Virus record (IMG/VR): IMGVR_UViG_3300011217_000001
Coordinates: 1-64,000 of that record
From: a virus
Lineage: Duplodnaviria; Caudoviricetes
Length of the DNA: 64,000 nt
Strand: one strand, 5' to 3'
Below the pieces are notes generated by a model. That model did not search any database, was not told where the DNA came from, and saw only the letters and a program-made list of their open reading frames with translations. Each line of letters opens with the position of its first letter. Position 1 is the first letter of the stretch. Below, one piece after another: positions 18,169-29,430 of the stretch. Made by a program: the position numbers and the translations under genes.

Positions 18169-19038
18169 TTACGGGCTGATGGCGGTGTTCGCCTGGCGGT
18201 TGATTGCCTCGACGTAACCGGTGTCCGACATGGCAGCCACGTCGGCACTGATGCGATCCATGAACGCCGGACGCAGGTTCGGGTTCACGCCGGTCATGTT
18301 GATGCGGCGCATCTGCTGCTCGGCGAAGCGGAGCACGCCTTCGCCCTGCTGCGTCACGCCCGAGAAGCGGATCGGGATGTCCAGCTTTTCGCCGGCCTGG
18401 GTCAGGTCACGACGGGACTGCACTTCGCCGCCGGTTTCCGGCATCATGTTGGTGGTCAGGTAAGCCTTGAGCGGCCACTGATGGGTCGGGTCCGGCTCGA
18501 TGTAGAGCACGGTGGCACCGACTACGTCCGGCAGCAGATCCGTCGGACGGTTGGCAGCAACGCTGTTGGCCATCACGGTGGGAACCTTGCTTTCCGGATC
18601 CATCATCAGACCGGTCATCCAGCCTTCCAGGAACTTGTTCCAGGAGCGGCCGTACTTCTCGTTCACGGTGTGCGAGGGCTGGGAGCGCTCGCGCTTCATG
18701 TCCGAGACTGCCTGCATCATTTCGCCGGCACCACCGAACGGGGTGTCTTCGAAGGACGCAGTCAGCGTACCGGTCAGGCCTTCGATCACGAGCGACTGCT
18801 CTTCGATCAGGGCCTTCAGGGCGCCAACCCAGTATTCCGGGTTCGGCAGGTTCTGGAAACCAGCGGGGGCTTCCAGCAGCAGCGCGAAGAGGTTCCGGCG
18901 GACGAAAGGCGCGTTGGAGACGTACGCCTTGTAATCCGGAGTGAAGCCCATCGACGCGCCGTAGCGGGTGTCAAGGGTCGGAGCGTGGCCGAAGCGGTTC
19001 GGACCCTTCTGACCCGCGAGAGCGTCTTTCAAACGCAT
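18169..19038 (-). CDS. Tail tube protein (phiKZ gp30-like)
   Basis: 289 aa, downstream of the sheath gene, EKYGRS and YIEPDP motifs, AGGAG RBS. Confidence 0.82.
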   Translation of the reverse strand: MRLKDALAGQKGPNRFGHAPTLDTRYGASMGFTPDYKAYVSNAPFVRRNLFALLLEAPAGFQNLPNPEYWVGALKALIEEQSLVIEGLTGTLTASFEDTPFGGAGEMMQAVSDMKRERSQPSHTVNEKYGRSWNKFLEGWMTGLMMDPESKVPTVMANSVAANRPTDLLPDVVGATVLYIEPDPTHQWPLKAYLTTNMMPETGGEVQSRRDLTQAGEKLDIPIRFSGVTQQGEGVLRFAEQQMRRINMTGVNPNLRPAFMDRISADVAAMSDTGYVEAINRQANTAISP

Positions 19039-24776: not shown

Positions 24777-26452
24777 TGGCCGAGATCAAAGAGCCGTTGG
24801 TCCCCATCCAAGATCCGGACCGCTCGTTCCGCGTGTGGAGCATCGAGGAGATCTACGGTCACAGCACCGATGGTCGATACGTGCCAAACGTGGGCGATGC
24901 GGTGTGGTCCTGGGTGGAAGGCCTGTTCCGCGTCATCGAGGTGGACTACACCACGTCCATCTCCAAGCTGAAGTCGCACGTCGGTCCGAGCCAGGGTGGT
25001 ATCACCGACGAGTTCGACATCCTGCTGGGCATGGGTCCGGGCTACCGCTCTGAATCCTTCCGCATGCTGCTGGACACCTCGGTCATCCCGCACGGCATGC
25101 AGCCGGATCGCCGTACCCGCCTGTACGGCAAGGACGCCACGCGCTACAAGGTGTTCAAGGGCACCAACATCGGTCAGACCGGTGAAGTCATCTCTGCGTA
25201 CTACATGAACGGTTCGTTCCTCGGCGACTTCATCCCGCTGGAACTGGTCGCCATGGAGCACAAGGACAGCCAGAACATTTCGGTCAAGGCCTGCATGCGT
25301 GGCTACACCATGCAGAAGCTGGAAGACGGCGAAGTGGTGACGCTGGTGGTGTACGATGACGAGGGCGGTCCGCTTTCGATCCAGAAGTTCATCATCTACA
25401 ACACCGGCTTCATTCGTGCGAGCGAGGAAGGTAAGAAGTACATCTCCTCCATCGCCATCGATTCGCCGTTCATCTCCAACGCCGATCCGAAGTACCTGGA
25501 CTTCCCGATCAACCTGCCGGTCCCGGGCTTGCAGCTGATGGGCGTGGTCAACTACAGCGATGGCTCCAAGCGTCGCGTACCGATCGATGGCACGAAGTTC
25601 AGCCTGTACGGCATCGACAACTACGTGGCGTCCATTGAAGACCAGGTCATTCCTCTCACGCTGGCCTACAAGCTCGGCGCAGAGGAGTACAGCTACAACG
25701 CCAGCCCCTCGATCAACAAGCACTTGAGCGAGCGTTACTGGGCCCGTACGCGCATGCTGGATGGCGCCTACAGCGTCAAGCTCTTCGCCTACCCGACCTG
25801 GGTGTCTGCACTGGTCGGTTACCGCATGCAGTTCTTCCTGTACAACCTCGACCGCGAGGAGGTCTACAACGTCACCTCGCTCATCGAGCTGGCCGAAGGT
25901 TCGGCGCCGTTCGACGGCACCGCCTACGGTGTTGTGCAGAAGCTGAAGTACGTGGTTGATCTGAACAAGGTCGACGGCAAGTACGCTGCGTATCGTCACC
26001 CGCAGACCTTCGAGGTTGCACTGCTGGCGCCGGGTACGCAGAATACCAACAACTGGTCCATCGGCTTCAGTCCGGGCCAGGATCCGCCGTACGGTCTGGG
26101 CCTGGAGGCGAAGATGACCTTCGTCAACGTGAACCAGTGGAAGCTGAAGATCGACTGCGGCCTGCCCAACCTGCAGCGCTGGCTGGACGAGGTGTTCTAC
26201 AACACCCAGCCGCTGTACAACGCCGAACGCGAAGTCAAGGCTCCCGAGCCGAACTACTTCGTGCTGGTGTTCGGTGGCCGCGAGATCGAGTACCCGATCA
26301 GCCAGTGGAATGCTGAGCTGCTGGTGCCCAACGATCTGCTCCAGGGTCAGTTGGTCTACATCCGGTTCCTGCGTCGTGAACCCACTGCTGGTTACCAGCT
26401 GGGTATCTCGGCACTGCCGGTGCACATCAACCAGGTTGCCAACCAGCTGTAA
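24776..26452 (+). CDS. Virion/baseplate structural protein (phiKZ gp26-like)
   Basis: 558 aa, TAATG-coupled to the gp27-like gene, YSVKLFAYPTW motif. Confidence 0.72.
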   Translation: MAEIKEPLVPIQDPDRSFRVWSIEEIYGHSTDGRYVPNVGDAVWSWVEGLFRVIEVDYTTSISKLKSHVGPSQGGITDEFDILLGMGPGYRSESFRMLLDTSVIPHGMQPDRRTRLYGKDATRYKVFKGTNIGQTGEVISAYYMNGSFLGDFIPLELVAMEHKDSQNISVKACMRGYTMQKLEDGEVVTLVVYDDEGGPLSIQKFIIYNTGFIRASEEGKKYISSIAIDSPFISNADPKYLDFPINLPVPGLQLMGVVNYSDGSKRRVPIDGTKFSLYGIDNYVASIEDQVIPLTLAYKLGAEEYSYNASPSINKHLSERYWARTRMLDGAYSVKLFAYPTWVSALVGYRMQFFLYNLDREEVYNVTSLIELAEGSAPFDGTAYGVVQKLKYVVDLNKVDGKYAAYRHPQTFEVALLAPGTQNTNNWSIGFSPGQDPPYGLGLEAKMTFVNVNQWKLKIDCGLPNLQRWLDEVFYNTQPLYNAEREVKAPEPNYFVLVFGGREIEYPISQWNAELLVPNDLLQGQLVYIRFLRREPTAGYQLGISALPVHINQVANQL

Positions 26453-26454
26453 AC

Positions 26455-26492
26455 GTCATAGAGGGAGGGGCTTCGCGCCCCTCCCCTATGCC
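26455..26492 (+). terminator. Hairpin flanked by GTCATA and TATGCC
   Basis: GGGAGGGGC-ttcgc-GCCCCTCCC-CTATGCC right after the stop at 26452. Confidence 0.7.
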
Positions 26493-26499
26493 CTGAGAC

Positions 26500-26547
26500 A
26501 AAAAAAAAAGACAAAAAAAAAAGGAGCCGCCAAGAGGCGACGGCTCC
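26500..26547 (-). terminator. Intrinsic terminator with long U tracts
   Basis: GGAGCCG...CGGCTCC preceded on + by two long A runs; follows the stop at 26566. Confidence 0.7.
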
Positions 26548-26565
26548 TCGCCCTTCTACAAGCAA

Positions 26566-27192
26566 TTATTCTTCAGCGTCTTCGACAACCCCACGGCCGA
26601 AGTGACGGTCCCAGAAAGTCTGGATGCTGGCAGGTGCCGGCTGTCCAGTGATGATCCGACGATAAACAGCGCGGAAGCCGTTGGTCAGTTCATGCATCTG
26701 CTGGTTGTCGTCTGCGCGGCCAAGTGCCCACTTGTTGTAGATGGTCAGCAACTTGGTCATCGATTCAACGATGTCTTCAATCGCGCGATCTTCGAAGGTG
26801 GAGGTCGCTACAGACATGACCGACTTGAATGCTCGCAAGTTGGCCTTGATGTGACCGAACGGATCGATCACTACGGTCGCTGCCGTGTCGAATGCTTCGG
26901 TGGTCTCGCTACTCAGGATCTGGTAGCAGGATTCGCTCAGGTACTTCTCCGTTGCAGCCCGAGCCTTTTCGGCTTCAGTAACAGGCTGATCGATCACGAG
27001 GTTTTCGAATTCGGTCTTGATGTGGTACAGGTCGAGGCGGTTGAAAGCGCCACCGAGAGGATTCAGCATGCTGGCAAACTTCTTGCTCAGCTCGTCGATG
27101 ATTTCCTGGTCCGTGTAGTTGTAGTCACGGAGCCTCTGGACCTTCTCGATGATAGCAGGTCTCTGGATGAACTCCGCACGTTCTTTGAGCAT
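26566..27192 (-). CDS. Hypothetical protein
   Basis: 208-aa helical ORF with AAGGGG RBS. Confidence 0.75.
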   Translation of the reverse strand: MLKERAEFIQRPAIIEKVQRLRDYNYTDQEIIDELSKKFASMLNPLGGAFNRLDLYHIKTEFENLVIDQPVTEAEKARAATEKYLSESCYQILSSETTEAFDTAATVVIDPFGHIKANLRAFKSVMSVATSTFEDRAIEDIVESMTKLLTIYNKWALGRADDNQQMHELTNGFRAVYRRIITGQPAPASIQTFWDRHFGRGVVEDAEE

Positions 27193-27285: not shown

Positions 27286-27765
27286 TTACTTCAGGACTTC
27301 TTCGCCGAGGGCGACCAGGTGACGCTTGACGGCCTTCAGGCTGCCACGGCTGCCGTCGCCGGCGCGGGTGGTGTAGTTGGTCGACAGGGCGCCATGCTTG
27401 ACGATGGTCTTGCCCTTGTTCTGCGGATCGTTGGATTCGCGGGTGCGCAGGTAGGTGTGGGTGACGCGGTCTTCGCCGATGTTGAAGGACAGGGTCGTGC
27501 GATCGATGTCCTTGTTGCCGTTCAGGACGTCGTTGGAGGATTCGCCATGGGCCAGGCCGGTGGCGGCCACGGCCAGCGCGGTGGCGTTCTTCACGTTCTT
27601 CAGGATCGCCGGGGTCACGCCGAACTCTTCGAAGATCGGGGTGCAGATCGATTCACCCAGGCCTTCGGGAGCCTGACCGTGGGAGTTGTAGGACAGCTCC
27701 TTCTTGATGCGGTCAGCGTGCTCGCGAACCTTGGCGTCGCCTTCGAAGATGGTCTTGTTGGACAT
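27286..27765 (-). CDS. Hypothetical protein, probably highly expressed early product
   Basis: 159 aa, extreme codon bias, behind two candidate early promoters. Confidence 0.85.
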   Translation of the reverse strand: MSNKTIFEGDAKVREHADRIKKELSYNSHGQAPEGLGESICTPIFEEFGVTPAILKNVKNATALAVAATGLAHGESSNDVLNGNKDIDRTTLSFNIGEDRVTHTYLRTRESNDPQNKGKTIVKHGALSTNYTTRAGDGSRGSLKAVKRHLVALGEEVLK

Positions 27766-27878
27766 GGTGCTTTTTCCAGTTGGTTTAGGGACGAACTACC
27801 CAGCAGGGCACTTCACAGTGTAGCACTGCGATGTACTTTTTTAGGGATAAGATGTTACTGCGTTGGTAGGTCAATTGG

Positions 27879-27907
27879 ATGATATATGCTTCAAACCGTT
27901 TTGAATC
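27879..27907 (-). promoter_or_regulatory. Candidate early promoter
   Basis: Minus strand reads GATT-N8-TTTGAAGCA-TATATCAT. Confidence 0.65.
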
Positions 27908-27952
27908 GAATTACGAAATGGGCGCAGTTTCCTAGCGAGTAGTACTACTACG

Positions 27953-27981
27953 GTAGTGTGTAAGTGAAACATGTTGGCATC
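27953..27981 (-). promoter_or_regulatory. Second, degenerate early promoter
   Basis: Minus strand reads GATG-N8-TTTCACTTA-CACACTAC. Confidence 0.4.
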
Positions 27982-27995
27982 GAATTCTGGCAAAG

Positions 27996-28053
27996 GGCAT
28001 AAAGGCTGAGGGTCGCACGGTCGCAACCGTGGCCCTCAACCTGCTTTTATGCC
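27996..28053. terminator. Long hairpin closed by GGCATAAA and TTTATGCC
   Basis: GGCATAAA-GG-TGAGGG...CCCTCA-CC...TTTATGCC. Confidence 0.65.
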
Positions 28054-28054
28054 G

Positions 28055-28650
28055 CTAGGCAATTCAGGACATTAGCCCTGTTAGTTTCGAGGTTTCTGAT
28101 GTGGCGCTAGATAAGGCCACTTGAAGCGACTGTGCGCTTCCCACAACCGCTCCCAAAGTTGAGCGGCTGTAGGCTGGACACAGGTCCAACAATCAAAGGC
28201 CGATTTGCTCAGGCCAGAGATTCATTCGACAGGAAAGATAGCTAGTTAACCCATTGGGACTTTCCAGATCCCGGGTATAGCCTAGATCAAGGGAGGTTTT
28301 CAATCCCTCCAGAACTTGACCAAGATTTTGCTCGACTGTCTATACCATACGGCATTGATGCAAAACGCATCCCGTAGTAATCGTCAAAGAGTAGCGACCA
28401 CCTCGCAATTACTACAGGCTGCATTCTCGCTATCGATCGCCCGGCTAAGGGAACAGGGGGGAACCCGGCCGAGGAGTGCGTCATTGCACAACGAGCCTAC
28501 AACTTCAGATCCACAGATCCGCGTACCGCTAAGAATCCCTCATTGATGCACCAAAGAGAGATCCACCTTGCTTAGGACGATTATGCGATTGGGTCATCGT
28601 CTGCATGGGAGTTGTGCCCGGGGAAAGCACTCTCCCAAATGATTGCTGAG
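28055..28650 (-). ncRNA. Candidate large structured non-coding RNA (~600 nt), family unknown
   Basis: No credible CDS; at least 12 stems found by eye; three A.C mismatches on + become G.U pairs on -; bounded by the protease stop codon and a terminator. Confidence 0.55.
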
Positions 28651-28662
28651 CCGTGTTGGAAA

Positions 28663-29430
28663 TTACTTCCAGTCGGCGCTCGGCGGACGGTTGCTGCCGC
28701 CGGCCCAGCCCAGGTCGCGTTCGATCTGGTTCAGCATCGAGCATGCGGCGGACTCCATGCCGTTGCTCGCCTTCATCTGGATGTCGCGAGCCATGCGCAG
28801 CTGCTGCGGCGAAATGGCGAACGATTCCAGCGACGGGTTGTGCCACTTGCGGGCCACGGCGATGCCGGGTTCATTCACGTAGTCCCAGGTGACCAGGGAC
28901 TTCATGCGCTTGTGGAGCACGTTACCCACCCAGCCATCTTCGGTCAGCGAACGCACCGAGAAGCACACGTCTTCTTCGGGATTCTCGAACGCTTCACGCA
29001 GCGCAGGGCCCATCGGACCAGCCGGCTTGACGCGACCCAGTACGGCGATCACCTGCCGGCCATTGGCCTCGCGGATGTTGTCGATGCGCACGTGGGCGAC
29101 GTGGTGGGAGATGTTCGGCTCGTAGATGTCGCAGACGCGGTTGATGAACTGCCGCATGTCCATGTCACCCTTGCGCGGATGACCGTACTCGCCACGCAGG
29201 TTGCCGGTGGCAATCTTGCGCATCAGCGGCGAGGAAGATTCAAACAGGTGCTTGGCATCCTCGAAGGGATAGAAAGCACCGGAGCTGTTGTGGTAGTCGA
29301 ACGCACCCAGTACCACGTTGTCGTAGTAGCCGCGTGCGTCTGCCTTCAGCGTGCCGGCCTTGTTGACGCCAACCAGCGCAGTACATTCGTACTTGGCCGA
29401 CTGGACAGGCTTTGCGCCCATGTAGCTCAT
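28663..29430 (-). CDS. Prohead (head maturation) protease (phiKZ gp175-like)
   Basis: LRGEYGHP (His), CFSVRSLT (Ser) and TWDYVNEPGI (Asp) motifs. Confidence 0.9.
   Translation of the reverse strand: MSYMGAKPVQSAKYECTALVGVNKAGTLKADARGYYDNVVLGAFDYHNSSGAFYPFEDAKHLFESSSPLMRKIATGNLRGEYGHPRKGDMDMRQFINRVCDIYEPNISHHVAHVRIDNIREANGRQVIAVLGRVKPAGPMGPALREAFENPEEDVCFSVRSLTEDGWVGNVLHKRMKSLVTWDYVNEPGIAVARKWHNPSLESFAISPQQLRMARDIQMKASNGMESAACSMLNQIERDLGWAGGSNRPPSADWK

Follow-up and report, generated by a model that had tools for sequence, protein, structure and literature searches.

The minus strand of the DNA analysed here probably carries, from about 28644 to 27996, an autonomous gene for a structured non-coding RNA of ~650 nt, and this RNA belongs to a family not yet described whose members lie at different genome places in related giant phages. 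Positions are those of the window, that is, the whole stretch of 64,000 nucleotides that was analysed (positions 1 to 64,000 of IMG/VR record IMGVR_UViG_3300011217_000001). We read the locus as an autonomous RNA gene because its stability is strand-specific, its open reading frames are lost in relatives, its helices are kept by compensatory changes, and its core is present twice and recurs elsewhere. The original prediction had proposed a large, densely structured, non-coding RNA on the minus strand that ends at the hairpin at 27996-28053, and this part stood; the description of the RNA as a feature of the vRNAP/head-protease operon did not, and a conserved link to that operon is not supported.

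The source genome is that of a 230-kb phiKZ-like jumbo phage, and its DNA is 88% identical to that of Xanthomonas phage Xoo-sp14 across the region. The RNA lies in an 897-nt space between two genes of the same strand, and the equivalent gap is unannotated in Xoo-sp14 too:

28663-29430, minus strand: gene for the head maturation protease, phiKZ gp175 type (phrog_3014, E 6.5e-72)
27286-27765, minus strand: next gene on this strand, encoding 159 aa (phrog_9746)

The protease product is full length (255 aa, as in relatives, on which PF20034 Peptidase_S80 is recorded), and a virion structural gene is found on the minus strand in the same neighbourhood. ARAGORN detected neither tRNA nor tmRNA genes in the window or in the whole genome (0 in both). 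The genome (record G000) has a single other long stretch that lacks an ORF of at least 70 aa, at G000 197242-197899, outside the window. This stretch has small ORFs, among them one of ~70 aa whose N-terminus is hydrophobic, as well as two hairpin/TTTATGCC elements (see below); no similarity was found between it and the RNA at 28644-27996.

We then looked at folding on both strands. The minus strand of 28055-28662 gave -228.3 kcal/mol, compared with -197.6±8.0 for dinucleotide shuffles (z of -3.86, 0/20 shuffles as good), whereas the plus strand gave -188.2 kcal/mol with a z of -0.81. Only the minus strand is much better than its shuffles, and the preference for that strand, which had been deduced from A.C mismatches that turn into G.U pairs, was borne out. 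In 150-nt windows on the minus strand, z ranged from -4.8 to -6.1 at 27950-28250 and was -4.2 at 28350-28499; no local excess of stability was seen at 28400-28650, the first ~250 nt of the RNA (z ~0). A strong folding excess was also observed at 26350-26600, between two convergent genes and on both strands (z about -4 to -5), where it is probably due to a bidirectional terminator hairpin. As for coding potential, none of the nine ORFs of the stretch (29-76 aa) stays open: each of them meets a stop or a frameshift in at least one of the relatives L003, L004 and Xoo-sp14, in agreement with the earlier view that the stretch has no credible ORF.

The RNA is composed of two related halves, and each half ends in the same core made of three abutting hairpins. 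These are, in order, helix 0 (GUUG-NNN / NNN-CAGC), a 13-bp hairpin (base CCU-NN-AG / CU-NN-GGG) and a small hairpin. The window holds core copies at 28357-28428 (with the distal strand of helix 0 at 28493-28505) and at 28123-28190. Three lineages could be aligned over the locus, the window, L002/L003, and L004 together with Xoo-sp14; the second half was aligned with four sequences (alignment A2), and L054 was added for the first half (alignment A3). From 5' to 3' the elements of the RNA are:

28607-28636, minus strand: first hairpin (H1) of the MFE fold, kept in L003 and L004, shorter in L054
28522-28590, minus strand: long-range helix, 28578-28590 with 28522-28532, enclosing a hairpin at 28533-28564
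28506-28521, minus strand: variable hairpin between two conserved single-stranded motifs
28418-28505, minus strand: helix 0 of the first half, 28493-28505 with 28418-28428, with hairpins inserted
28357-28418, minus strand: module A, made of the 13-bp hairpin (28371-28418) and the small hairpin (28357-28371)
28338-28350, minus strand: TATG / TATAGAC box that opens the second half
28228-28340, minus strand: multi-branch core of the second half (RNAalifold on A2), with a closing helix, 28331-28340 with 28228-28237, and two inner hairpins
28192-28221, minus strand: hairpin (helix 10 of A2) with two pairs changed on both sides
28123-28190, minus strand: helix 0 (28173-28190), module B (28140-28173) and small hairpin (28123-28140)
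28065-28120, minus strand: two hairpins, 28101-28120 and 28065-28080

The proteases of the three lineages are 93-99% identical and the RNA stretch 83-89%. Two segments of the latter are almost fully rewritten between lineages, even between phages with 99% identical proteases, and the hairpins are kept there. More generally, many helices are kept in relatives via compensatory changes. In A3, the long-range helix, the 9-bp hairpin inside it and the variable hairpin all keep their pairing despite different letters. The long-range helix (28522-28590) has two pairs changed on both sides between the window and L003, L004 and L054; the 9-bp hairpin (28533-28564) shows the same pairing with other letters in three lineages, as read from the alignment; and the stem letters of the variable hairpin (28506-28521) are wholly different in the window, L003, L004 and L054, its position being kept. 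Helix 0 of the first half was paired by RNAalifold (A3 columns 167-177 with 243-253); its strand letters GUUG...CAGC are kept family-wide and its inner pairs covary. In A2, 97.4% of the cells are paired and 10 pairs are changed on both sides, compared with 3.9±1.4 in shuffles (0/500) and with 0-3 when the partners were slid. The closing helix of the multi-branch core is altered on both sides in L054 (by eye), and helices 11-13 of A2 hold over the module B region. The hairpin at 28065-28080 lies inside a 48-nt stretch that is invariant in the clade, and a CUAAU-loop hairpin resembling the 28065-28120 part was also present in the metagenomic phages G029, G030 and G007.

The same type of count was made on the core. 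With 10 copies, 93% of the cells are paired and 37 show a double change, compared with 12.4±3.1 in shuffles; with 17 copies, 92.8% are paired and there are 65 double-change cells, compared with 22.8±3.9 (0/500 shuffles). These pair statistics, like those of A2, ignore phylogeny, and the effective number of independent lineages behind them is small (three sub-clades plus about six others). When the core was turned into a covariance model (R1) and the model was rebuilt (R2), module A scored 54.8 bits with R1 and 56.3 bits with R2, and the module B region 65.3 bits with R1.

All the stem pairs listed in the original prediction could be found, in place or a few bases away. The 8-bp long-range pair that it proposed between 28168 and 28494 was rejected because the changes are uncompensated: the 28494 arm is altered in two relatives and its partner is invariant. 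The GGTATAG/CTATACC stem (28274/28346) competes with the closing helix, which covaries. Several long-range helices given by RNAalifold were either invariant or broken in one lineage; those joining the start of the second half to the base of the terminator were discarded, being invariant and broken in L003.

These data bear on a reading in which there is no RNA gene at all: a protein gene would have decayed here, or the stretch would work at the DNA level, for instance as an origin, as a site for packaging or as a hotspot of recombination. Relatives whose protease is at most 57% identical carry other genes at this very position, among them one of 252 aa (phrog_5043), the GC content drops to ~0.47-0.54 in the gene-free stretch from ~0.6 in the flanking genes, and parts of the stretch are replaced between phages with 99% identical proteases, as indicated above. 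Against it, no trace of the 252-aa gene is left in the window's stretch at the level of protein similarity, and decay of that gene was rejected on this ground. Moreover, the changes are compensatory and concentrated at paired positions, both folding and core-model matches are strand-specific (antisense matches do not exceed 15 bits), and a terminator-type hairpin ends the family members in the lineages inspected. We consider this reading very improbable. In L051, L060, L061 and L062 (protease 54-57% identical), the 252-aa phrog_5043 protein, which has no Pfam match, is encoded directly after the protease, often followed by a BCS1/AAA ATPase gene; the window's genome lacks both genes.

The gene-free stretch after the protease is also found in two relatives with 59-61% identical proteases: it spans 805 nt in L050 and no less than 669 nt in L054, whose contig ends there. 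A terminator-type GC hairpin follows each half in L050, and L054 has one between the halves before the contig end; the window's clade keeps the last GC hairpin only. The two halves would have arisen by tandem duplication, with which the hairpins of L050 and L054 fit. The TATG/TATAGAC box that opens the second half is common to the window, L004, L050, L054 and the metagenomic phages G020 and G021. It might be a promoter placed before the second half, but we keep this as a possibility since L003 reads TATT. When the L050 and L054 gaps were compared with isolated phages by blastn, no match was obtained, and nhmmer with the clade alignment found nothing at distant loci, so sequence alone does not reach them.

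We next considered the ends of the RNA and the region that follows it:

28653-28666, minus strand: promoter-like T-rich box ending in a TTACA-like sequence and overlapping the protease stop codon
28635-28644, minus strand: conserved 5' motif, AUGAUGUGG-like, probable start region of the RNA
27996-28053, minus strand: GC-rich terminal hairpin followed by TTTATGCC
27766-27995, minus strand: probable promoter and 5'UTR region of the 159-aa gene, outside the RNA, 88-99% identical to Xoo-sp14

A box of this type lies ~10 nt upstream of the AUGAUGUGG-like motif in eight lineages (the window, L003, L004, L054, RTH11, LucasX, G006 and G004), and this motif is found where the gene-free stretch begins on its 5' side, in the Xoo-sp14 clade as well as in the RTH11/LucasX clade. 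The window's box is the most degenerate copy, and no canonical promoter was found at the locus. From its sequence, we infer that the T-rich box is the RNA's own promoter; the RNA would then be transcribed from this box, which here happens to overlap the protease stop codon. The co-transcription with the protease that had been proposed is not supported by these observations: the conserved promoter-like box stands ahead of the RNA in every context, even where no co-oriented gene lies upstream.

At the other end, 23 of the 36 TTTATG sites in the genome, the one at 27996-28053 included, are directly 3' of a strong GC hairpin, and such hairpin plus TTTATGCC elements occur, for example, at window positions 2044, 5847, 7766, 18122 and 45169. 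The core of the phiKZ late promoter is TATG, with transcription starting at its G (PMC4666361). We take the element for a terminator combined with a TATG-type late promoter, and it would form the 3' end of the RNA; a simple scan did not call a canonical U-tract terminator at the 27996-28053 hairpin. The 230 nt that follow (27766-27995) are more conserved than most of the flanking coding sequence. They contain a ATATATCATCCA-like motif also found at G000 228555, 50726 and 211708, and a AAAAAAGTAC box resembling the phiKZ middle promoter, and they are probably a stacked promoter region with a long 5'UTR. This region belongs to the next gene and not to the RNA.

The R1 model was run on the whole records of 32 related jumbo phages. 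Every Xoo-sp14-like phage has one or two core copies, and single copies were found elsewhere in G004, G006, G011, G020, G021, G029 and G030; R2 added G007 and the isolates RTH11 and LucasX. Outside the Xoo-sp14 clade the copies occupy other genomic sites, in gene-free stretches of ~0.3-0.8 kb (~270-290 nt in G020 and G021). The RTH11 and LucasX gaps, of 848 and 807 nt respectively, are both unannotated, and the second goes unmentioned in the LucasX paper (PMC9009655). In RTH11, LucasX and the metagenomic records except G007, the inspected copies are at the 3' end of a strongly folded gene-free stretch, and all these stretches (G007 apart) end in a GC hairpin. A whole-stretch alignment of RTH11, LucasX and G006 has 45 of its 188 predicted pairs changed on both sides.

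The tie to the protease operon is not supported by this survey, for ordinary genes occupy the spot when the protease is at most 57% identical, and the core is found elsewhere in RTH11, LucasX and eight metagenomic phages. The survey also bears on the idea of a structured trailer in the 3' untranslated part of the late protease operon, produced by read-through only and acting in cis, for example by stopping 3' exonucleases or by insulating the next promoter. Such a trailer would explain why, in the window, the RNA shares the strand of the protease gene, follows its stop codon directly and extends to the first hairpin of terminator type; stable hairpin stacks are typical of protective 3' ends, and the failure to find a canonical promoter also goes in this direction. 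However, the same core, 5' motif and box are found in RTH11, LucasX, G006 and G004, far from the protease gene, with an upstream neighbour in the opposite orientation in RTH11 and LucasX; in G029, G030, G007 and G011 the RNA follows tRNA arrays; close protease relatives lack the RNA altogether; and the conserved junctions and multi-branch domains exceed the needs of a protective stack of hairpins. We regard the trailer as improbable, and altogether a purely cis-acting trailer, a dead gene or a DNA element is unlikely. An autonomous gene whose product would not be a cis-element of the protease mRNA is the reading we retain.

The tRNA arrays deserve attention on their own. Co-oriented tRNA genes are directly upstream of the RNA in two independent lineages, the G029/G030/G007 group and G011; none was found near the RNA in the window, RTH11, LucasX, G004, G020 or G021. 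A gene for an SspB-like protein (ClpXP adaptor) lies just downstream of the RNA in RTH11 (L093 3037-3576) and in G011 (L076 1653-2372), so that the order in G011 is five tRNAs, the RNA and the SspB-like gene. A link to the latter gene was not retained, as only one lineage group shows it and the window's genome has no such gene. One may ask if the RNA has a role related to tRNA or translation, either as a decoy for tRNA-targeting defence nucleases or for a tRNA-processing or tRNA-modifying enzyme, or as a processed companion of tRNA arrays. Both kinds of neighbour would suit this role, as would the build of the core, whose helices stack almost continuously and which has a conserved U.G pair close to the base. 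Yet the window's genome has no tRNA, tmRNA or SspB-like gene, neither ARAGORN nor the Rfam models for tRNA, tmRNA and RNase P match the RNA, the RNase P-like GGAAAGUCC word is limited to the window's clade, and the adjacency may merely reflect a shared accessory region. A tRNA-related role is improbable and a weaker alternative than the trans-acting scaffold or decoy described below.

The family is restricted in its distribution. R2 gave no match in phiKZ, PhiPA3, Psa21, RSL2, RP31, FLC9, Special G or PCH45. There was none either in RaK2 (NC_019526) or 121Q (NC_025447), in a comparison that covered the core only and in which the positive control, RTH11, scored 40.7 bits. A strict DNA pattern of the core matched only five IMG/VR contigs, four of them already known (L095, obtained in this way, had no R2 score), and exact patterns from the RNA returned only three known IMG/VR contigs. 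These few matches indicate a family that is real but narrow. With a gapped DNA pattern taken from the 5'UTR next to it, four metagenome contig matches were obtained, all unrelated and due to chance. Inside a coding region of the window (18617-18700, plus strand) there is a weak core-model match of 23-24 bits, with the same score at the Xoo-sp14 equivalent, which is probably due to chance. Three soil metatranscriptome runs labelled as RNA (X15, X18 and X20) contain L003-like phage contigs of 47-234 kb that span the locus; they reflect either heavy DNA carry-over or genome-wide transcription in active infection and, being whole-genome contigs, say nothing on transcript ends or levels.

We then compared the RNA with known classes. 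Rfam (4227 models) gave no match in the whole window at gathering thresholds; a local search of 27600-28800 with E up to 10 yielded two chance-level matches only (E above 3), and on the related loci only tRNAs were found. The absence of a tRNA, tmRNA, RNase P or intron match, noted at the outset from the sequence, was confirmed by Rfam and ARAGORN together. RNase P RNA was also discarded because members outside the window's clade do not have the GGAAAGUCC word, and a group I or II intron because the protease has its full length, a separate start exists for the next gene and no intron model matches.

ROOL and GOLLD are large 'ornate' RNAs of phages and prophages (RF03087, RF01998; PMC12286853). 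They did not match at E ≤10 in the window or at E ≤1 in 13 related loci. The likeness lies in the general build: a phage-borne RNA of several hundred nt, with many helices, multi-branch domains and conserved junctions between covarying helices. As to adjacency to tRNA genes, which is frequent for ROOL and GOLLD in phages, some lineages of the present family show it and others do not. Unlike them, the present RNA is hosted by phiKZ-like jumbo phages of Xanthomonas-type bacteria, and its tandem two-half build with a repeated three-hairpin core has not been described for ROOL or GOLLD. The transcription papers on phiKZ and 201phi2-1, based on ONT-cappable-seq, report only small RNAs (PMC11512511, PMC10914365). 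Like the RNA studied here, these are non-coding, come from phiKZ-like jumbo phages and are bounded by phage promoters and terminators; they differ in being <250 nt and mostly 5'UTR-derived, the conserved one lying upstream of the gp182 homologue, and the core model has no match in phiKZ or PhiPA3.

The pRNA of phi29, of ~170 nt and with a defined two-domain fold, acts in trans in virion morphogenesis. It is likewise a phage-encoded structured RNA, and the window's copy of our RNA adjoins head genes; there is no sequence or model similarity between the two, and the linkage to head genes is not conserved in the family.

The conserved junctions and multi-branch domains, together with a gene-like build that can move, lead us to propose a folded RNA that would act in trans in the middle to late phase of infection, most likely by binding protein as a scaffold or a decoy. 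More tentatively, it may represent a new 'ornate' RNA family of phiKZ-like (nucleus-forming type) jumbo phages: a mobile gene made of duplicable ~300-nt units, whose product might assemble into a defined particle, by itself or together with a protein of the phage or its host, or serve as a decoy against host RNA- or tRNA-directed defence. This is a conceivable reading that we would not put forward as the probable one.

That phiKZ expresses non-coding RNAs is all that a 2026 review records of this kind (PMC13282480), and it follows that little is known about such RNAs in jumbo phages. The present data add a concrete RNA family with strong covariation support and clear boundaries, present in three cultured phages that all infect Xanthomonas (Xoo-sp14, RTH11 and LucasX), and the family is for these reasons directly testable. 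To our knowledge, large structure-conserved RNAs are rare, and those found so far are ribozymes, riboswitches or self-assembling particles. The build from movable and duplicable units bears on how RNA genes evolve in phages. If the RNA does belong with the 'ornate' families, it would have a dedicated role in the infection cycle, comparable to that of the ROOL and GOLLD particles or of the phi29 pRNA.
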